Shown: positions 2,453-57,749 of the stretch, one piece after another
Layout: each line of letters opens with the position of its first letter
How positions within the stretch are numbered: position 1 is the stretch's first letter
From: an uncultured Alphaproteobacteria bacterium
GTDB lineage: Bacteria > Pseudomonadota > Alphaproteobacteria > RF32 > CAG-239
Assembly (NCBI GenBank): GCA_944391705.1
Contig: CALXUN010000002.1
Span: 8,279-72,278, forward strand
Direction of reading: 5' to 3'
DNA length: 64,000 nucleotides
Program-made: the position numbers and the translations under genes
Notes under the pieces: generated by a model
Database searches by the model: none
What the model saw: the letters and a program-made list of their open reading frames with translations, nothing else
What the model was told of the DNA's origin: nothing

Positions 2453-4120
2453 TTAATTTTGCAATTTATTTCTTCTGGTTTTCGGGAATTTTATCATAAA
2501 TGTCGTCCCTTTGTTAACGGTACTATCGACACTTATCATACCCTGAAACTTTTCCACCAGCGACTTGACAATTGCCAAGCCCAGCCCCGTCCCCTGGTGT
2601 CGGCTGCTGCGCCCGTCCGAATAAAAAGGTTCAAAAATATGGCAAAGCTTTTCCGGCGAAATACCGACACCGGTATCGGAAATTTCAATTAATACATAAT
2701 TTTGATTTTTTGAAGTCCGGATTGAAAGCTCTCCGCCTGAAGGCATGGCTTTTAAAGCATTTTGTGCCAAATTCAAAATAATCATTTTAAAATCAGCTTC
2801 ATTACCGACAATGGTATTTTTTCCGCCGGCATTTTGCTGATGGACGACAACGCCGTTTCTTTTTGCCTCATAATCAAGTAATGACACAATTTCTGCTATA
2901 TTGATATCGGCATCAAAGCTGCCGTGTTCGCCGCCGCTGTTTCTGGCCAGTTTTAATAAGCGCTCCGGCATTTCAACGCTGTTTACAATCTGATTGTAAA
3001 TCATCAGCAAATATTTTTTTTCTTCTTTGTTATCCGGAACATCTTTGTAATAGTTATCCAAAAGGCCTTCCAAAATCATGCGGATTGAACCTAAATTGTT
3101 TTTCATTTCATGAGCAACGGAAGTTGCCAAAAAACCGAGCGAGGCAATTTTCTGCTCATGCGAAAAGCGTATATCATCGCTTAAATCACGGATAGATTCA
3201 ATAATATAAAAACCTTTTTTATCAGATGTATTCTGAATTTTTAACGGCGCGGCATTAATAGACAAAGGCCTTCCGGACATATTCTGAATAATACTGATAC
3301 CCTTTGACATACTGTTTTTAATTTCACGCAACGGACAGGTAAACATACCTTCCGAACAAGGCTTATCAAAGTTATATGCCTGATAGCATTTCCGACATTC
3401 TTCCATTCTTAATGTTTTTAACAGTTTTATATAGGCTTTGTTAGCCAGAACAACATTATAATCATGATCAATAACCCTGATCCCGTCCGGAATGGCATCA
3501 ATCAAAGACTGCAGGAAAATTTCCGTGTTTTTTATTTCGGCAATATTGTTTTCTATATTATCAATCATGGTATTAAAAGTTTTGGCCAAAGTATCAAATT
3601 CATCGAAAAAAATTTGTTTTTTGCCCAGCAAAACCCGGTGTGAAAAATCACCTTTTGCTACAAATTTGCTGGCATTGGTCAACCGGCGTATCGGGACAAT
3701 CACCCATTTATGAAGAAGCCAGCCCAAAACCACCACCAAAACCAAAGACAGCAATGAACTGATACCGATGATTTTAACACCCTCCACAAAAGCAACCGCC
3801 CGTTCATTATAATTTTGTTGCAAATCCTTATTTAATTTTTGCTCTCTGGACAGTTCTTCCTGCTTTTGGCCCAAGTCACCGCTTAAAGCGGTTTTGCTTT
3901 CTTTGGATAATTCTATTTTTGAGTTTGCCAATTCACGGCGCAGGGCAATATTTTCATACAAAAGTTCCATAACATATTGATTGCGCAAAATAATTGAGTT
4001 TTGATCCTCCTGATATTTTTTGCCGTAAATATTTAAAAATATGGTCAAAAACAGTATTGCCATAAAAATTAACAAGACAAAAACCGTATAAAAAATTTTC
4101 TTATTCAGGCTGAAATACAT
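2453..4120 (-). CDS. Membrane sensor histidine kinase with PAS domain; orphan, no adjacent response regulator
   Basis: N-terminal TM helices, coiled-coil or HAMP-like region, H-box SVAHEMKNNLGSI, HATPase G-boxes GTGLGLAIVKSLVE. No receiver-domain gene nearby. Confidence 0.85.
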   Translation of the reverse strand: MYFSLNKKIFYTVFVLLIFMAILFLTIFLNIYGKKYQEDQNSIILRNQYVMELLYENIALRRELANSKIELSKESKTALSGDLGQKQEELSREQKLNKDLQQNYNERAVAFVEGVKIIGISSLLSLVLVVVLGWLLHKWVIVPIRRLTNASKFVAKGDFSHRVLLGKKQIFFDEFDTLAKTFNTMIDNIENNIAEIKNTEIFLQSLIDAIPDGIRVIDHDYNVVLANKAYIKLLKTLRMEECRKCYQAYNFDKPCSEGMFTCPLREIKNSMSKGISIIQNMSGRPLSINAAPLKIQNTSDKKGFYIIESIRDLSDDIRFSHEQKIASLGFLATSVAHEMKNNLGSIRMILEGLLDNYYKDVPDNKEEKKYLLMIYNQIVNSVEMPERLLKLARNSGGEHGSFDADINIAEIVSLLDYEAKRNGVVVHQQNAGGKNTIVGNEADFKMIILNLAQNALKAMPSGGELSIRTSKNQNYVLIEISDTGVGISPEKLCHIFEPFYSDGRSSRHQGTGLGLAIVKSLVEKFQGMISVDSTVNKGTTFMIKFPKTRRNKLQN

Positions 4121-5832: not shown

Positions 5833-6374
5833 TCTTCACTGCCAACCGGTTTAACTTCATTAATTTCGGGAATATAACTTTTAAGTATTTTTTCAACACC
5901 GTCTTTTAAAGTCCGCATGGCATACGGGCAGCCGGCACATTTGCCGGTCAGTTCCACCCAGAGAATGCCTTTTTCAAAACCTTTTAGTTCAATATCGCCG
6001 CCATCGCGGTTTAAGGCCGGACGAATCCTGGCCGCGACCAGTCCGGAAATTTTTTTCATCAACGCATCTTTATCCTCTTTTGCCGGAGAGGCCAGCACCA
6101 CATCTTCGCCGGTGGCGGCAAAATCAAGAATTTCAGCCATAATCTGCGGGCTTAAATCTTCCCACAATGCCTCCGGCGTTTTGGTTACGGACACCATATC
6201 CGGCGAAATCAAAACGCTTTCAACGCCGCCCAAATCAAAAATAGCTTCAGCCAAAGGCGACTTGCGCAAAGATTTGGCATCGGCAAATTCCGAAACATCG
6301 GATTTTAAAATCCGTTTTTCAGGATAAAAGTTGCGAATATTTTCATCCGGCGTTGTCTGTATATTAATGAGCAT
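5829..6374 (-). CDS. NifU/Nfu-type Fe-S cluster assembly protein (Nfu_N + NifU C-terminal domain)
   Basis: C-terminal CAGCPYAMRTLKDGVE CxxC motif. Start moved to the ATG at 6374 (MLINIQTTPDEN). Overlaps the upstream gene by 11 nt. Confidence 0.75.
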   Translation of the reverse strand: MLINIQTTPDENIRNFYPEKRILKSDVSEFADAKSLRKSPLAEAIFDLGGVESVLISPDMVSVTKTPEALWEDLSPQIMAEILDFAATGEDVVLASPAKEDKDALMKKISGLVAARIRPALNRDGGDIELKGFEKGILWVELTGKCAGCPYAMRTLKDGVEKILKSYIPEINEVKPVGSEE

Positions 6375-11742: not shown

Positions 11743-11985
11743 GTGCAAAGCTTTACACCAAAAAAAACAAAAGTACCAAGTGTTTTTAAAATATTTTATC
11801 ATCTGTTTTTTAGATGACGCTTTGAAACACTTAATTCACGGAAGCAAACATACTTGAGGAAGAACAGTAACAAACAGTAGGTTGTAACTTATCCCCTACA
11901 AGACTCTTTAAAATTGCAAAAAAAAAAAACAGTTTAGAATGACGGGCAAATCAGTATTTTTTGCAATTTTTCAGGAGTTCTTTGG

Positions 11986-12720
11986 ATGAAACATAATCTT
12001 TTTTCATTCTTATGCAGAGGGCTGCAGATGCGCCGTAACTTTTTAACGACGTGTACGATATCGGGTACACAAGGAAAAAAGTTACAAGCAGATATTGCTC
12101 TATGCGGAAGAAGCATGGTGGAGATGTTGGGGGTACTGGCAATTATTGGTGTGCTTTCGGTCGGCGCTATCTCGGGTTATTCCAAGGCGATGATGAAATA
12201 CAAACTCAACAAACAAGCCGAGCAATTAAGCTGGCTGTTTAACATTATCTATCAATACAAAGGACAGTTCGTTTTTGATAAGAAAACTTCCATGATACCT
12301 TTATTTACCAAATTAAATTTAATTGACCAAAATATGATACGTGCTGATAAAAAAGAAACAATCTACGATTCTTTCGGCAATGCCATCGCTATAGCCAACA
12401 ACAACGGCCCGAAGTTCAATGAAATTGTCTTGAATATGGGTTTACCGAAAAGCAGTTCTAACCGCTTGGCGATTTGTCAAAATGTTTTTAACGTTGCTAA
12501 AGCCCACAGTCCTTACCTGCTTTACATTCGCACCGACAACAGAGAAAGCCAAAGTGAGCCGGTAACCCCTTCCGATATGTATTACGGCGATAGCCTTTGC
12601 CAAAGTCGGGGAAATGGTGTAAATTGTATACGTTACGCAACTCTTGAAAACATTTATAATGTCTGCCAAAATTGTGATGAAATGCCAATTTGTTATTTTT
12701 CTATCACGTGGCGCATATAA
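11986..12720 (+). CDS. Prepilin-like protein (type IV pilin or pseudopilin N-terminal domain), paralog 1
   Basis: Class-III signal: ...ALCG|RSMVEMLGVLAIIGVLSVGAISGY, with Glu at +5 after the conserved Gly and a hydrophobic alpha1 helix. C-terminal Cys cluster (CQNCDEMPICY). Unusually long 40-aa leader. Terminator at 12748-12781. Confidence 0.65.
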   Translation: MKHNLFSFLCRGLQMRRNFLTTCTISGTQGKKLQADIALCGRSMVEMLGVLAIIGVLSVGAISGYSKAMMKYKLNKQAEQLSWLFNIIYQYKGQFVFDKKTSMIPLFTKLNLIDQNMIRADKKETIYDSFGNAIAIANNNGPKFNEIVLNMGLPKSSSNRLAICQNVFNVAKAHSPYLLYIRTDNRESQSEPVTPSDMYYGDSLCQSRGNGVNCIRYATLENIYNVCQNCDEMPICYFSITWRI

Positions 12721-16990: not shown

Positions 16991-17134
16991 TTTATTAACA
17001 TACTGGAAATCCCCCGGAAAAAAACGGGGGACTTTTTTTTACATTTCACGCTAAGACTTTGGCAAAATCTGCCGGAAATAATGGATTTTAAAATTTTTCC
17101 TTGCAATATCCTCACAATTCCTTAATATAAATAC

Positions 17135-17290
17135 TACCGTCGTTTGACGGTGGTGTCCGTAAGACATCTTCATACCAAAAACTCCTTGTTTGGGGAGTGG
17201 AGGAAATAAGGCTTTGCTCGAATAACTCTGACTGTGGTATGACAGTTTTACGGCTCCCCACCTTAAAGTTTTTAAGGTGGTTTTGTTTTA
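17135..17290 (+). ncRNA. Candidate structured small RNA or cis-acting leader, copy A. Has a paralog at 56500-56655 on the minus strand.
   Basis: Promoter TTGCAA (17101-17106), 16 nt, then TAATAT (17123-17128). 5' hairpin CCGTCGTTTGACGG, internal ACUGU...ACAGU hairpin, anti-SD-like ACUCCUUG and GGAGG segments. Ends in an intrinsic terminator, CCACCTTAAAGTTTTTAAGGTGG followed by a T-run. Nearly identical in sequence to the copy at 56 kb. Confidence 0.45.
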
Positions 17291-17318
17291 ATTTATAAAC
17301 AAAGATGGAGTTAATAAA

Positions 17319-20363: not shown

Positions 20364-20716
20364 AATCGCTTTTCTCCATAATTAAATTTTCCTGCGCCAT
20401 ATAATGACAGCACCTTATAAAATACACAACCTAAATTATAGGACAATCCAATCAACAATTATTTCTAAATTGTCGTAAACACAAACGCCATAACACAGAT
20501 TCCTTAAAAAAATGGTATACAGACACCTGATTAAATCAAAACAAAAATCTTCCTGATTTCCCGGAGCAAGACCTGTTTAAAGAGAGCAAAAAAACGTACC
20601 GGAAGTATGCTCTCCTTTGCGCCAAAAGAATCTTTAAAGTTGCAAAAAAAAAAACGGTTTAGAATGACGCGTAAATCTTATTTGTTTTGTAATTTTTGTA
20701 ACTTTGGAGATTTTTT

Positions 20717-21553
20717 ATGAAACCTTGGTTTTCTTTATTCTTACGCAGAATGTTGCAGATGCGCCGTAACTTTCTGACGACGTGTACAACATTAGGTACA
20801 CGAGGAGAAAAGTTGCAAGCAGATGCGACTTTTTCCGGAAGAAACGAACGACCGCAGAACCGGACAGATGCGAAGCCTTGTTTGAGCGACGTGTACAAAA
20901 TGAGTACACGAGCGAAAAGAAGGCAAACAGATGTTCGGTTATCCGGTCGTTCTATGGTGGAGATGTTGGGAGTTTTAGCAATTATTGGAGTTTTAAGTGT
21001 TGGCGTTATCTCGGGCTATTCCAAAGCCATGATGAAGTATAAACTCAACCGACAAACAGAACAAATCGGTAGTATTCTAGATTATGTTCTGATTAATTCT
21101 GATAAGTTTAATCACGATACTTCCATAGCATTTATTTCATTATTATATAAATTGAATGCCATTCCGGTGGAAATGATAAGGGAAGATTGGATCTACGGCT
21201 ATGCTTATGACATATTCGGCAATAAAGTATATCTGAATGACAATAATGATGGAAATAATATTTATTATAGTTTATCCGTTTCCATCAGTAAATACTCGCG
21301 CGAAATTTGTATGAATTTATACCAAATGGCCAAGCTCCGTTCTGCCAATTTATGGCAAACCGTGTTTAATAAAGACACCCAAAGTTCTTCCATGGAACAC
21401 ACCAACAGAGTATGGGGCGATTCTTATTGCAGCAAATCAGTTACTTGCCTCAAAGATTTAAGCTTAACACAAATGGACGAACTTTGTTCAGCATGTGACG
21501 ATTCTCAAACCTATTGTAGATTTTATATTTTATGGGGTCGGATCAAACCTTAA
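20717..21553 (+). CDS. Prepilin-like protein, paralog 2, with a duplicated leader module
   Basis: Identical mature N-terminus G|RSMVEMLGVLAIIGVLSVGVISGYSKAMMKYKLN. The 77-aa leader contains a tandem duplication of the leader module. Divergent C-terminal domain with a Cys cluster (CSACDDSQTYC). Confidence 0.6.
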   Translation: MKPWFSLFLRRMLQMRRNFLTTCTTLGTRGEKLQADATFSGRNERPQNRTDAKPCLSDVYKMSTRAKRRQTDVRLSGRSMVEMLGVLAIIGVLSVGVISGYSKAMMKYKLNRQTEQIGSILDYVLINSDKFNHDTSIAFISLLYKLNAIPVEMIREDWIYGYAYDIFGNKVYLNDNNDGNNIYYSLSVSISKYSREICMNLYQMAKLRSANLWQTVFNKDTQSSSMEHTNRVWGDSYCSKSVTCLKDLSLTQMDELCSACDDSQTYCRFYILWGRIKP

Positions 21554-21661
21554 AATTAAACATGAATATCACACAAGTCCATTTATAAATTTTGCAAAAT
21601 TGCAACCTCGCTTCTTATCAAGTCATTAAAAAAACAAAGACATTCTTACGTGTTATACCAA

Positions 21662-22125
21662 CCACCATCCGGTCAAGCCGCTTAAAAAGTTCGGATAACG
21701 AGTCAGATACGACGAACCCCTTTTTACATAAGAAGCACAAAGAATTAGACAGTTACGAAGAAAGCTTTCTTGTACCGCCAAACCAACGCCTGATTAAGCC
21801 GCTAAAAAAACAACAACCGCCCAAACACAAAGTCCGCCACCATTCCGTCAAGCCGCTTAAAAAGTTCGGATAACGAGTCAGATACGCCCCCTTTTTACAT
21901 AAGAAGTTCAGAGAATTAAACTGATACGAAGAAAGCTTTCTTGCACCGCCAAACTAACGCCTGATTAAGCCGCTAAAAAAAACAACAACCGCCCGGACAC
22001 AAAGTCCGCCACCATTCCGTCAAGCCGCTTAAAAAGTTCGGATAACGAGTCAGATACGACGAACCCCTTTTTACGCAGTGTACCCAAAATAGTACATAAG
22101 TAAAAAGGGGTTCAAGTAGATGACC
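21662..22125. repeat. Tandem direct repeat of about 175 bp, about 2.4 copies, ending in a hairpin
   Basis: Units begin at 21662, 21837 and 22009 (CCACCATYCCGTCAAGCCGCTTAAAAAGTTCGGATAACGAGTCAGATACG...). The last unit carries a 21-nt insertion containing GTGTAC-N8-GTACAT inside the hairpin AACCCCTTTTTAC...GTAAAAAGGGGTT. Confidence 0.85.
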
Positions 22126-54732: not shown

Positions 54733-56121
54733 TTGAAAAAATTAAATCCCATTATTTTATCAGGCAAAGAAGTCCTGCCCTTAATTGAAGGCGGCAAAGG
54801 CATTAACGGCAGCAACGGATACAGCTCCGGCGCCTGGGCAAGAGAAAACTGCGTCGGCACGTTTTCGGCTGTCAGCCCGGATACACTTGACAATAACGGC
54901 AACGTTATCATCGAAACATTTAAGAAGAAAATCCGTGCCGAACGCCATGAAGAAATGGTGCAATATGCCATTCAGGGCGGCATAGACCAGGCAAAAGTGG
55001 CACATGAAGTTTCCGGCGGCAACGGCCGCATCCACATGAATATGCTTTGGGAAATGGCCGATTCCGAACGGATTATTGCCGCCATCTTGGAAGGAAGCAA
55101 AGGCCTGATCCACGGTGTCACCTGCGGTGCCGGGCTGCCTTATCATTTAGGTGAGCTGGCCTCAAAATTCAAAGTTTATTATTACCCGATTATCTCCTCG
55201 GCCCGGGCCTTTCAGGTATTGTGGAAACGTGCCTATTCCAAATGCTCGGAATATTTGGGCGGCGTTGTTTATGAAGATCCGTGGCTGGCAGGCGGACACA
55301 ACGGTTTATCCAATGCCGAAAACCCCTTAGAACCGCAGTCGCCATACAACCGGCTGGTTGAATTACGTAAGCTCCTGCGTGAACTGGGGCTTGAAAAAAC
55401 ACCGATTATCATTGCCGGCGGAGTTTGGAAATTAAGTGAATGGGAAGATTATATTGACAACCCGGAAATCGGTGACGTTGCCTTCCAGTTCGGTACACGC
55501 CCGATGATTACCAAGGAAAGCCCGATAAGTGCAGCCTGGCAAAATGTTATGATGCACGTCAAAAAAGGCGATGTCATTTTACAAAGATTCAGCCCGACGG
55601 GGTTTTTCTCCTCGGCCATTAAAAACACTTTCTTAGAAAAACTGATTGAACGTAAAAAAGGCGAAATCGCTTTCAAAAACGAACCGGACAACGAATATTC
55701 TCATGCTTTGCCCATGAATGCCAACCGTACGGTTTACATCAAACCGGAAGACGCCGAAAAAGCCGACAACCAAATCAATGCCGGATTAAGCGTTATTCAG
55801 GAAACCCCTGATCAAACGGTTGTCTTTATGAGCCAGGAAGACTACAAAAAAATGAAGCAAGACCGTGCCGAATGCGTCGGCTGTTTGTCGCAGTGCCAGT
55901 TTTCAACCTGGTCGCGCGCTAACGGTACCACCGGCAAACTGCCGGATCCGCGCACATACTGCATTCATAAAACGCTTTATGAAGTCGGCCACGGCGGCAG
56001 CGTTAAAGACCATTTGCTGTTTGCCGGCCACCAGGTTTACCGCTTTGCAACCGATCCGCTGTATCGCAACGGTATTCCGACAGTAAAAGAACTGATTGAA
56101 AAAATCAAAGTCGGCGAATAA
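54733..56121 (+). CDS. FMN-dependent NMO (2-nitropropane dioxygenase/enoyl reductase-like) family oxidoreductase with C-terminal extension
   Basis: TIM-barrel motifs GVTCGAGLPY and IIAGGVW. TTG start with an AAGGAAAAAA RBS. Confidence 0.55.
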   Translation: MKKLNPIILSGKEVLPLIEGGKGINGSNGYSSGAWARENCVGTFSAVSPDTLDNNGNVIIETFKKKIRAERHEEMVQYAIQGGIDQAKVAHEVSGGNGRIHMNMLWEMADSERIIAAILEGSKGLIHGVTCGAGLPYHLGELASKFKVYYYPIISSARAFQVLWKRAYSKCSEYLGGVVYEDPWLAGGHNGLSNAENPLEPQSPYNRLVELRKLLRELGLEKTPIIIAGGVWKLSEWEDYIDNPEIGDVAFQFGTRPMITKESPISAAWQNVMMHVKKGDVILQRFSPTGFFSSAIKNTFLEKLIERKKGEIAFKNEPDNEYSHALPMNANRTVYIKPEDAEKADNQINAGLSVIQETPDQTVVFMSQEDYKKMKQDRAECVGCLSQCQFSTWSRANGTTGKLPDPRTYCIHKTLYEVGHGGSVKDHLLFAGHQVYRFATDPLYRNGIPTVKELIEKIKVGE

Positions 56122-56184
56122 CAATAACCTGTTTTGACTGATAAATTTTAACCCCACTCTTTTAAGAGCGGGGTTTTTGTTTTA

Positions 56185-56460
56185 TTATTCTTTATCCTTA
56201 TTTTTATCCTTGGCCGGAGAATAATCAACGAGTTCGATTTTAACCCGCTTGTCATAAAACGCTGCCAGCTGCGCCAGATAGCCGCCGTTAATCTGGCCGC
56301 GGCCGCATATCAGATAATCCAATTGCCATTCCGGTATGCGAGAAAGCACTGATAAATCTTTTAACGGCATATCGTGTCTTTGGCGTAATTCCCATAACAG
56401 CTTTCGGGTTTCACGCCGGGTTAATCTTAAGGCCGCGCGCTTTTGTTGTTTATTAAGCAT
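56185..56460 (-). CDS. XRE-like small regulator, paralog B of 17319-17627
   Basis: Start set at the ATG at 56460 (MLNKQQKRAALRL...), preceded by AAAGGAG. The C-terminal FYDKRVKIELVD aligns with YGYDLMIRLKFSVD of paralog A. Confidence 0.55.
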   Translation of the reverse strand: MLNKQQKRAALRLTRRETRKLLWELRQRHDMPLKDLSVLSRIPEWQLDYLICGRGQINGGYLAQLAAFYDKRVKIELVDYSPAKDKNKDKE

Positions 56461-56499
56461 TTTTATAAGCTCCTTTCTTTTGTTCATACTAAAATTAAA

Positions 56500-56655
56500 A
56501 ACAAAACCGCTTTAGAAAATTCCAAAGCGGGGAGCCAAAAAACTGTCACAATGCAGTCAGAGTTATTCGTGCCAAAGGCCTTATTTCCTCTACTCCCCCA
56601 AAGAAGGAGTTTTATTGTGAAGATGTTTTTTGGACACCACCGTCAAACGACGGCA
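56500..56655 (-). ncRNA. Candidate structured small RNA or leader, copy B (paralog of 17135-17290)
   Basis: Promoter TTGCAA (56684-56689), 16 nt, then TAATAT (complement of 56662-56667). Terminator CCGCTTTGGAATTTTCTAAAGCGG followed by a T-run on the minus strand. Sequence is near-identical to copy A, with compensatory substitutions in the stems. Confidence 0.45.
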
Positions 56656-56747
56656 GTGCTTATATTAAAGAAATTCCCCATTTTTGCAAGTGTTTTTTAA
56701 AAGCTCCCTCAAACGGGAGCTTTTGTTAATTACTCTCATTTGTTGAC

Positions 56748-56776
56748 AATTTATATTGCAGGTATTATATTTTTTA
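56748..56776 (+). promoter_or_regulatory. Sigma70-like promoter TTGACA-N17-TATATT, with a second one (TTGACT-N17-TATATT) about 150 nt downstream
   Basis: Near-consensus hexamers. Together they precede a short non-coding stretch that ends at the terminator at 57030-57062. Confidence 0.4.
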
Positions 56777-57062
56777 TAAGGGCAATGAAGAGTGGAAAGG
56801 TTTGCCGCCGCCATGTGTGTTTATTAAAGCACCTTGAAGAGATGTATGATAGAGATGACCGCCTATCCATTGTCCTTATTTTTTAAATCCTGTTTTCACA
56901 AAAATATTATCCCCACTTGACTTTTTTATTTTACAATGTTATATTTAATTAACCAACCGGTGGGAATGAAAGATGGTAATCGCCTGCTGTGTATCCTTAA
57001 AAGGGGAGCTGCTCTTTTAAGAGACTTGGTAGAAAAGCCCGAATTTTTCGGGCTTTTTTGTT

Positions 57063-57749
57063 TTATCTTTCTATTTTATACATTGAAGATATTGTCCTTC
57101 CATTTTCAGTTGGCGAAACAACAATTCTATATCTGCCGTCAGGTCTTGATACCTCATAAACAGATTGACCTCTTGGCGATATTTCAACAGGTTGTTCTTT
57201 GATATATCGAGGTATTTGTGTTGTTTCATTTCTAGGAACATCATGTTTATAGATAGCTTTATTTAAGCCATAATTTCTTTTGGTTCCATATTCTCGCAAC
57301 AAAGGTTTTCCTGCCGCAATAATTTCTCCGTTTTCCCCTCGTATAGCCTCGCCACGTTGGAGAATAACCGGTTCACCATTATGGTTCTTCATCCTTGTAA
57401 TAACATCTTTACCGCTACCTTGAAACGGGTTTTGTTTCAACCTGTCATAAGCCCGCCCGATTTGCCAACTGTTATAATAGGGACGCATGATGTTTACGCC
57501 GGTACTACCCAGACCATACATACCTAACCCCATACCGCCGAATTGTGTCATATTTCCCAAATTCTGGGCAAGATTACCGGTACCTTCCTCATCTTTAAGA
57601 CTTAAATAATCATTCATGCGGGTATCAATCCCGTACTTCTCACCCAGATAATCCAGTCCGCCGCCGCTCAGGCCGTTTATGGTTCGACCGGCGCCGTATA
57701 CCATGTCGGCGACATTTTCCGCCAGATAATCCGTAAACATATTCGGCAT
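57063..57749 (-). CDS. Hypothetical Gly-rich protein
   Basis: 228 aa with G-rich segments (GGGLDYLG, FGGMGLGMYGLGSTG). No known domain recognised. Terminator immediately downstream. Confidence 0.45.
   Translation of the reverse strand: MPNMFTDYLAENVADMVYGAGRTINGLSGGGLDYLGEKYGIDTRMNDYLSLKDEEGTGNLAQNLGNMTQFGGMGLGMYGLGSTGVNIMRPYYNSWQIGRAYDRLKQNPFQGSGKDVITRMKNHNGEPVILQRGEAIRGENGEIIAAGKPLLREYGTKRNYGLNKAIYKHDVPRNETTQIPRYIKEQPVEISPRGQSVYEVSRPDGRYRIVVSPTENGRTISSMYKIER

Follow-up and report, generated by a model that had tools for sequence, protein, structure and literature searches.

A structured leader RNA with two predicted competing helices upstream of small XRE-type regulator genes in uncultured gut Alphaproteobacteria

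Background

In terminator/antiterminator riboswitches and attenuators a structured domain in the 5' untranslated region (5' UTR) is followed by an intrinsic terminator right before the open reading frame (ORF), and in the riboswitches one strand of an aptamer helix can instead pair with the 5' side of the terminator. Here we describe a structured leader RNA of about 165 nt with the same properties. It is present twice in a 64,000-nt stretch of contig CALXUN010000002.1 from an uncultured Alphaproteobacteria bacterium (the window; coordinates without a locus name are positions of the whole window), in each case upstream of a gene for a predicted small helix-turn-helix (HTH) protein of the XRE type. 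We refer to the two RNAs as copies A and B, to the proteins as proteins A and B, and to each RNA together with its promoter and gene as a module. In Clostridioides difficile the cyclic di-GMP-I and cyclic di-GMP-II riboswitches act on genes for pilins, adhesins, and regulators, and the leader RNA also precedes genes for pilins, surface proteins, and transcription factors, a resemblance to regulons of second-messenger riboswitches that we do not count as evidence. In contrast to these riboswitches, the leader RNA does not match any family of Rfam 15, its alternative helix overlaps the terminator by 2-4 nt and is predicted to control an anti-Shine-Dalgarno/Shine-Dalgarno (anti-SD/SD) pairing as well, and its main genes are many paralogous small XRE regulators.

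Two other groups of RNAs share the anti-SD element. The ROSE and fourU thermometers are simple hairpins without terminator or conserved junction. As in these, an anti-SD strand in the 5' UTR can pair with the SD of the downstream gene, but in the leader RNA the masking of the SD would be linked both with a further alternative helix and with the termination of transcription. The sibling anti-SD small RNAs (sRNAs), comprising the CcsR or 'cuckoo' RNAs of Alphaproteobacteria, LhrC of Listeria, and the csRNAs of Streptococcus, have about 80-150 nt and consist of simple hairpins with a C-rich loop motif and no tied ORF. Like the leader RNA they are present in multiple, sometimes tandem copies, have their own promoter and terminator, and carry CUCC motifs complementary to SDs. 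In the leader RNA, however, the CUCC strands sit in two competing helices of a 165-nt multi-helix 5' leader, and there is no match in Rfam. The skipping-rope, drum, DUF3800-I, and FuFi-1 motifs described in 2017 combine, as the leader RNA does, a complex conserved fold with a Rho-independent terminator and a recurrent association with protein genes, but they seldom occur in potential 5' UTRs and are associated with their genes in either orientation (PMC5737381). The leader RNA, in contrast, is nearly always co-oriented with and directly upstream of its gene, and is not matched by their covariance models.

Results and Discussion

Conservation of the fold

Copies A and B are predicted to adopt the same architecture, which consists of a hairpin P1 followed by the helices P2 and P3 that are stacked onto a junction bearing P4 and a P5/P6 arm (folding z-score of -5.4 for each copy; minimum free energy (MFE) of copy B -61.3 kcal/mol). 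Covariation was analysed in 79 distinct copies from gut metagenomes and from metagenome-assembled genomes (MAGs) of uncultured Alphaproteobacteria. In the alignment of these copies, which was fitted to the model and thus favours the structure, 92.7% of the cells are paired compared to 38-49% (about 43%) if the 3' partners are slid, compensatory changes on both sides are found in 48 of the 52 predicted base pairs, and the number of double-change cells is 941 compared to 94-142 after sliding. A similar picture had already emerged from the first 24 copies in a plain MAFFT alignment (90.9% paired, about 42% when slid). The differences between copies A and B are compensatory in P2, P3, and the terminator, and across the family all eight stem pairs of the terminator show compensatory changes. 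P1 is rich in G.U pairs (e.g. UG:55, GU:57), and therefore the structure can exist only on this strand and as RNA.

The segments GGUGUC, ACAUC, ACUCC, GGAGU, GA-N-AUAAG, CGAAUAA, GACUG, CAGUUU, and GCUCC are conserved throughout the family. Some of them were fixed by the search patterns; two patterns fixed different segments, and the copies detected by one pattern also retain the set that the other had fixed. Two further hairpins are possible, GGUGU (3' side of P1) with ACAUC (J2/3) and ACUG with CAGU (99.7% paired); here the bases are near-invariant, so that covariation is uninformative. Searches of the whole window against Rfam 15 gave no match at the gathering threshold, and at E<=10 the element drew only scattered low-scoring hits (56100-57100). 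Scanning 16 loci with diverse copies resulted in no Rfam match on the element and only in tRNA and RNase P elsewhere in these loci, and a description of an XRE-associated RNA motif was not found in the literature. The leader is apparently an undescribed structured RNA family and, as is typical for riboswitches, its structured domain is conserved and forms part of the 5' UTR of the genes behind it.

Judged from the pairing and the reading frames, it is extremely improbable that conservation at the DNA level, as in a dispersed repeat, a miniature inverted-repeat transposable element, or a recombination site, or else an antisense coding gene accounts for these patterns. The element is indeed dispersed and present in many copies, both copies in the window are overlapped by ORFs on the opposite strand with 80-85 aa (82 and 85 aa), and mosaic copies (L025 and L009a with mismatched P2 halves, L001 with only the 3' third) suggest recombination between copies. 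However, the pairing is preserved by the compensatory changes in nearly all pairs, and many of the G.U pairs would be C-A on the other strand. The antisense frame shifts between the copies so that the two translations diverge after ...RSF, and the variable positions follow the helix partners and not the third codon positions; antisense coding was rejected on these grounds.

Two partners for one strand

The 3' strand of P4 (in the following called the G strand) has the sequence GG-N-GGAG, and CUCC-N-CC is the sequence of the linker that joins P2 to the terminator. To tally the pairs, each sequence was anchored on GGAG and CUCC and the variable position 5 was counted. At this position we find G-C 31, U-A 23, A-U 10, G.U 5, C-G 2, and U.G 1 times together with three mismatches, so that 72 of 75 sequences are paired and four Watson-Crick pair types occur. 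The mean contiguous helix between G strand and linker has 6.88 bp compared to 5.20 bp (standard deviation 0.16) if the linkers are shuffled among the sequences, and none of 1000 shuffles reached this value, although the copies share descent and the shuffle statistics therefore overstate their independence. Because the same position of the G strand also covaries with the 5' strand of P4 (pair 105-117), two mutually exclusive helices are, as judged from covariation, both under selection. The linker starts right after P2 and the G strand is located at the far end of P3, and therefore the pairing of the two is sterically incompatible with P2 and P3. In addition, the alternative helix takes the first 2-4 nt of the terminator stem. 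A triple helix built from the two CU-rich strands and the G strand was also considered but was rejected because the covariation is antiparallel Watson-Crick including U-A and C-G pairs. If the alternative helix is forced, the predicted energy changes from -61.3 to -53.6 kcal/mol in copy B and from -59.7 to -49.5 kcal/mol in copy A. Because forcing it costs 8.8 kcal/mol on average, the terminator-forming fold is expected to be the default state.

The linker has a second potential partner. Of 54 distinct leaders, 39 have GGAGC as the SD of the downstream gene and 34 have GGAGCU, whereas only one of the 17 other genes in the window with a GGAG SD has GGAGC (Fisher 1e-6), and the linker sequence AGCUCC is the exact complement of GGAGCU. 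In the predicted MFE fold of the read-through RNA of copy B, GCUCC (56535-31) pairs with GGAGC (56473-69) across the terminator hairpin. The SD of copy A is GGAGUU, and the linker-SD pairing is absent from its MFE fold. The A-rich segment between terminator and SD can also pair with the U tract; this post-terminator hairpin (U tract/AACAAAA) shows a modest excess over composition-matched shuffles (7.2 versus 6.3 bp). Mutually exclusive pairings such as these characterise the expression platforms of riboswitches, and the functional consequence would be the one proposed below.

Genes behind the leader RNA

In 65 of 75 cases the protein encoded directly after the RNA belongs to the same small XRE-like family, so that the RNA is not the generic repeat unrelated to HTH genes that the preliminary description of the window had allowed for. 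The remaining ten proteins follow more divergent RNA copies. Three of them are type IV pilin-like with an N-terminal GRSMIEMLGVLAIIGVLS segment, six are secreted (two of the six were examined and both are BspA-type leucine-rich repeat (LRR) proteins with LRR_5 domains), and one is a larger canonical XRE protein. The RNA is always co-oriented with the downstream gene. The SD starts at a median of 13 nt after the end of the RNA model, and the distance from the terminator to the SD or ORF is 13-30 nt. A gap of 13 nt is too short for a further promoter, so that transcription of the gene has to pass through the terminator. Between promoter and ORF both window copies have a G+C-rich hairpin with a U tract, which is the arrangement of intrinsic terminator attenuators. 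Such a constant co-oriented upstream position is the signature of a cis-acting leader and not of a partner of one particular protein. The large covarying fold with its alternative pairing and the occurrence in front of pilin-like and LRR genes extend the preliminary description, and to judge by these features the RNA behaves as a cis-acting leader. Pilin-like and BspA-type LRR genes also follow the leader, which therefore probably serves to coordinate surface genes with regulator genes in these gut Alphaproteobacteria. A metabolic association that would point to a ligand is not apparent in the set of downstream genes.

The preliminary description had suggested that the module could be phage-repressor-like or a toxin-antitoxin-like pair of RNA and protein. 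An RNA-protein toxin-antitoxin pair, or a phage-repressor or immunity module of a mobile element, now seems very improbable. It is true that small XRE proteins are typical antitoxins and phage repressors, that the profile matches of the proteins include HipB, HigA, an immunity repressor, and controller proteins, and that some modules adjoin a zeta-toxin gene (L017, L020; Zeta_toxin E 2.7e-45). However, the XRE gene is not followed by a toxin gene and the neighbours of the modules are housekeeping genes (adhE, recR, ftsI, accC, NMO, and a response regulator). One multi-helix unit of 165 nt makes up the RNA, and not an array of short repeats like the repeats of about 36 nt in ToxIN-like type III systems, and the downstream protein is an HTH protein and not a ToxN-like nuclease. 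There were no matches in viral contigs (the early pattern of the viral scan, which contained the variable P5 helix, was too specific), in phage or plasmid records (blastn), or in PHROGs. The PADLOC library gave no match for protein B and only generic HTH or controller-protein matches for protein A, and the same RNA also precedes pilin and LRR genes.

Some modules are located immediately downstream of a gene for a zeta-toxin-like kinase (L017 1519-2740, L020 1360-2581, L025 about 984-1232; the Zeta_toxin match given above). This gene is preceded by an ORF of 98 aa, and in L025 the toxin gene appears to be truncated.

Proposed function of the leader

We consider it probable that the leader is a bistable cis-acting attenuator combined with a translational switch, which would make it similar to an orphan riboswitch. 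In the OFF state, represented by the predicted minimum-energy fold, the G strand would be held in P4 by the upstream ACUCC strand. P2, P3, P4, and the terminator would form and most transcripts would stop as an RNA of about 165 nt. In transcripts that are read through, the free linker AGCUCC would pair with the SD GGAGCU and translation would be blocked. In the ON state the G strand would pair with the linker CUCC-N-CC including the beginning of the terminator stem, and P2 and P3 would be excluded. This would weaken the terminator and free the SD so that the regulator could be made. It is from the pairings that we infer that the two states control both termination and translation, and in which direction. 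The switch might be triggered by a small-molecule ligand in the conserved junction or internal loop, by a protein or RNA capturing the A-rich/CUCC 5' strands, or by temperature. The size and conservation of the junction, together with the symmetric GAAAUAAG/CGAAUAA internal loop, point to a ligand or a protein.

Apart from the shared descent of the copies, several observations weigh against this function. The overlap between the alternative helix and the terminator comprises only 2-4 nt, and given its energetic cost the ON fold would need a factor or a kinetic route. The LRR-type leaders do not have the GGAGCU SD. Tandem RNA-RNA-gene arrangements exist (L004, L009, L024) in which each RNA has its own promoter, which fits an independently functioning RNA, and in locus L020 an intact RNA is found beside a broken XRE gene.

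The last two observations lead to the alternative that the terminated RNA is a trans-acting sibling sRNA. The single-stranded CUCC linker just 5' of the terminator would then be the anti-SD seed for other mRNAs, and the XRE gene would be a passenger or encode the transcription factor of the RNA itself, made by leaky read-through. We regard this as rather unlikely, but it explains the separate promoter and the strong terminator of every unit, also within tandem arrays, and it is in line with at least five copies per genome and at least seven on a single metagenome contig of 246 kb. It would also agree with the RNA being far more conserved than the proteins, with its being kept between ldh, a DUF805 gene, and adhE while the XRE family differs (see below), with the intact RNA at the pseudogenised XRE gene of L020, and with the free linker being complementary to the GGAGCU SD common to the paralogous XRE mRNAs. 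On the other hand, nothing would require a purely trans-acting sRNA to be co-oriented with a gene that follows after 13-30 nt in essentially every case that could be evaluated, the pilin and LRR genes among them. Neither would its linker have to be complementary to the unusual SD of its own gene, and the conserved junction and the intramolecular alternative helix exceed what base-pairing sRNAs usually need. A dual function in cis and in trans is quite possible.

Going beyond the cis-acting switch, it could be imagined, if only tentatively, that the leader belongs to a new class of riboswitches or senses a signal in an equivalent way. Its junction would bind a cellular signal, for example a second messenger, and thereby jointly switch on the paralogous XRE, type IV pilin, and BspA-type adhesin genes, while the abundant terminated form might additionally act in trans via the CUCC linker on sister GGAGCU SDs. 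If the proposed function holds true, the leader would be an undescribed class of structured regulatory RNA, with about 100 distinct representatives in the sequences covered, whose conserved core is complex and whose switch mechanism is readable. The gut bacteria of this clade have no cultured model, and almost no regulation is known for them. The leader would give direct access to the control of pili, of surface adhesins, and of the numerous fast-evolving small XRE proteins. As an orphan riboswitch candidate it could, through its ligand, reveal a signal of gut colonisation.

Distribution of the leader RNA

Further copies were collected from contigs encoding homologues of proteins A and B, and these were used to derive a conserved search pattern. 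Scanning representative genomes with this pattern resulted in 17 true hits, which are all in MAGs of uncultured (Alpha)proteobacteria from animal and human gut. One MAG contains up to five RNA copies on four contigs. Metagenomes scanned with the core pattern yielded 118 stretches, which come from a gut-type sample wherever the record name gives the source. As far as the collections show, the leader RNA is restricted to uncultured gut Alphaproteobacteria, and we presume that the MAGs with RNA copies belong to an RF32-type gut lineage. Pattern matches in Latescibacterota, Chloroflexia, and Bacillota (three) are chance hits that are not matched by the covariance model. The sequence L004 2931-3145, upstream of a Bundlin/PilS pilin gene, scored 26-32 bits and is not a member, the core motifs being absent on inspection.

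Some loci contain incomplete or mosaic copies. In L001 (3650-3961), which has a B-type XRE gene, the leader retains only the 3' third with the P3 3' strand, P2 3' strand, linker, and terminator (49-69 bits). In place of the 5' two-thirds there is an unrelated sequence of about 190 nt, which brings its own promoter of the TTGACA type and contains a long-range pairing, GGGAGCGG/CCGCTCCC. In the same locus tRNA genes are matched by Rfam at 3094-3166 (minus strand, just upstream) and at 5891-5963 (plus strand, downstream of the XRE gene by about 1.6 kb). In L025 1359-1529 and L009 2545-2713 the 5' and 3' halves of P2 stem from different P2 variants and have two to three mismatches, so that these mosaic copies look like recombinants between sister copies.

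The small XRE-type proteins

The RNA-linked XRE family comprises 51 distinct sequences in 17 clusters. An alignment of proteins encoded right behind RNA copies has no large gaps. The C-terminal strand of the family has the signature, roughly, [FY]-Y-x-K-x-[VI]-x-[IV]-x-L-[VI]-[DE]. Proteins A and B are so divergent that BLASTP does not find a match between them at E<=100, and a comparison of the small A family with the small B family by hhalign is in register over the HTH but has an E-value of 0.01 and a probability of only 4%. However, each of them matches a hidden Markov model (HMM) of the RNA-linked proteins from which its own family was left out from end to end (protein B with 32.6 bits, protein A with 33.0 bits), and the blocks FYDKRVKIEL and KYGYDLMIRL, which had been noticed as similar C-terminal blocks, fall on the same profile columns. 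Because each scores about 33 bits against an HMM built without its own family, proteins A and B are, on this evidence, probably distant members of one very divergent XRE-type family.

Protein A has a weak match to HTH_19 (E 8.6e-5) that is below the Pfam cut-off, and protein B alone does not match any Pfam family, but eight of 12 diverse members of the RNA-linked family match HTH_3, HTH_19, HTH_25, or HTH_31. The profile of the 12 members matches the solved XRE proteins DdrO, HipB, SinR, HigA, ClgR, and C proteins with E-values from 1e-8 to 1e-3. An AlphaFold2 model of protein B built with 15 close homologues has low confidence (pLDDT, the predicted local distance difference test, of 53); its helices 15-28, 33-40, 44-52, and 59-69 and its single strand are compatible with the XRE fold. 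The RNA-linked proteins share the HTH core of about 60 residues with HipB, HigA, DdrO, the N-terminal domain of SinR, and the C proteins of restriction-modification systems. In contrast to these regulators the family is lineage-restricted and extremely divergent, and its members are encoded by solitary genes without a toxin or restriction-modification partner.

Organisation of the two modules

Module B is a self-contained predicted transcription unit that consists of a sigma-70-type promoter, the leader RNA, an intrinsic terminator, an SD, and the gene for a small XRE-family regulator (Table 1). Between the terminator and the SD there is a short A-rich spacer. An ATG at 56487 is also in frame with the ORF. 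All 36 of 36 full-length homologues of protein B have 89-94 aa and the ATG at 56487 is located 5' of the SD, and therefore ATG 56460 can be taken as the start, in agreement with the preliminary description. The hairpin downstream of the ORF serves as the 3' end of the module; it was not reported by a generic terminator scan.

Table 1 Position of the features of modules B and A in the window
Feature	Position	Strand	Remarks
Bidirectional hairpin upstream of module B	56701-56735		AGCTCCC-TCAAAC-GGGAGCT with an A run and a T run on the flanks; read directly; insulates the module
Promoter-like hexamers, module B	56689-56662	-	TTGCAA 56689-56684, N16, TAATAT 56667-56662; read directly
Structured leader RNA, copy B	56660-56498	-	About 165 nt, no conserved ORF; predicted from folding, covariance model, and covariation
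Helices of copy B, P1 to P3	P1 hairpin 56659-56634; P2 56633-25/56543-35; P3 56620-14/56552-46	-	
Helices of copy B, P4 to P6	P4 56610-03/56599-92; P5 56591-88/56562-59; P6 56579-71	-	Followed by linker and terminator
G-rich strand GGGGGAGU	56599-56592	-	3' strand of P4, SD-like; possible partners are the P4 5' strand (56610-56603) and the linker
Linker GCUCC with the first two C of the terminator stem	56535-56529	-	Alternative partner of the G strand; complement of the SD
Intrinsic terminator, module B	56530-56497	-	10-bp stem 56530-56507, then UUUUGUUUUU (tail also given as TTTTGTTTTT)
SD GGAGCU	56473-56468	-	7 nt 5' of ATG 56460
ORF of protein B, 91 aa	56460-56185	-	Predicted divergent XRE-type HTH; C-terminal strand motif FYDKRVKIELVD
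3' hairpin of module B	56152-56173		CCCCACTC/GAGCGGGG; common to the convergent NMO-like gene; read directly
Promoter, leader RNA, and terminator of copy A	17101-17290	+	TTGCAA 17101-06, N16, TAATAT 17123-28; terminator stem 17258-17280
ORF of protein A, 102 aa	17319-17627	+	XRE-type HTH of the same divergent family as protein B

The preliminary description had presented module B as the reverse-complement copy of the element at 17 kb, with an identical TTGCAA-N16-TAATAT promoter, the same terminator logic, and a separate bidirectional hairpin as insulator. Each of these features is found in the sequence. The inverted repeat between 17118-17297 (plus strand) and 56490-56672 (minus strand) consists of three collinear blocks of 98, 60, and 32 nt with 78-81% identity, and the MAFFT alignment of the two units has a mean column identity of 85%. 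A covariance model detected exactly two copies in the 64 kb, with 199 bits for copy B and 173 bits for the other copy; a second model, run with filters off, scored 178 (copy B) and 155 bits and everything else at 27 bits or less. The duplicated family of modules with promoter, RNA, terminator, and small HTH protein that had been postulated is thus real in this window, with proteins that are probably distant homologues, while the suggested nature of the module has to be revised from a toxin-antitoxin or phage-repressor system to a leader RNA.

A generic promoter scanner misses both promoters of the window, each of which matches the consensus at eight of 12 positions. Most of the 79 distinct copies keep this distance between the hexamers while the spacers vary in sequence, and promoter-like hexamers and a terminator are present in every complete copy. 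The -35 box has TTGCCA/TTGAAA/TTGACA-type variants, and divergent copies have looser -10 boxes. Evidence for an autoregulatory operator was not found in the promoter spacers, which track the ancestry of the locus and not the XRE family.

Module A is part of a site with the order ldh, DUF805 membrane protein gene, module, and adhE. This site encodes an A-type XRE protein in the window and an unrelated-looking 'MSKGSGH...' type in three MAGs (L008, L014, L022), but RNA and promoter are closely similar between the window and the three MAGs despite this difference. Locus L020 has a copy A-like hybrid SD region in front of its broken 'MSKGS...' ORF. Together the two cases suggest a cassette-like replacement of the regulator with a breakpoint between terminator and start codon. 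It is unusual that so highly conserved a leader is combined with downstream regulators that are hypervariable or replaced, and this pattern suggests cassette-like turnover behind a fixed control element.

Other features of the window

Divergently to module B, two small transcription units without ORFs are located at 56740-57062 on the plus strand. The first has a strong sigma-70-like promoter (TTGACA-N17-TATATT at 56743-71), and its region 56780-56875 is a weak match to the skipping-rope RNA RF02924 (25.7 bits compared to the gathering score of 36.7, E 0.0017). The second has a strong sigma-70-like promoter as well (TTGACT-N17-TATATT at 56917-45) and a clear terminator at 57028-62. The two units have a similar GGnAAUGAAnGAUGG at their start, and the divergent promoter sequence occurs again beside the B-type module of locus L002 (3560-3600).

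The window contains three more sets of repeats. The inverted repeats 227-308/15398-15479 and 1008-1058/14648-14698 have 71-82% identity and correspond to two paralogous genes of the lactate/malate dehydrogenase type on opposite strands, about 14 kb apart. At 21629-22058, in a non-coding gap of about 550 nt, there are about 2.5 tandem copies of a unit of about 172 nt (73-98% identical). When the minus strand is read, a terminator-like hairpin and a T run close each of the units; there is no match in Rfam, and the units may be another tandem array of small RNAs. The regions 11908-12225 and 20633-21064 share direct repeats of 64-161 nt with 73-78% identity at a distance of 8.7-8.8 kb and with a TTGCAAAAAAAAAAAAC-type start, which suggests two paralogous genes with a similar upstream region.

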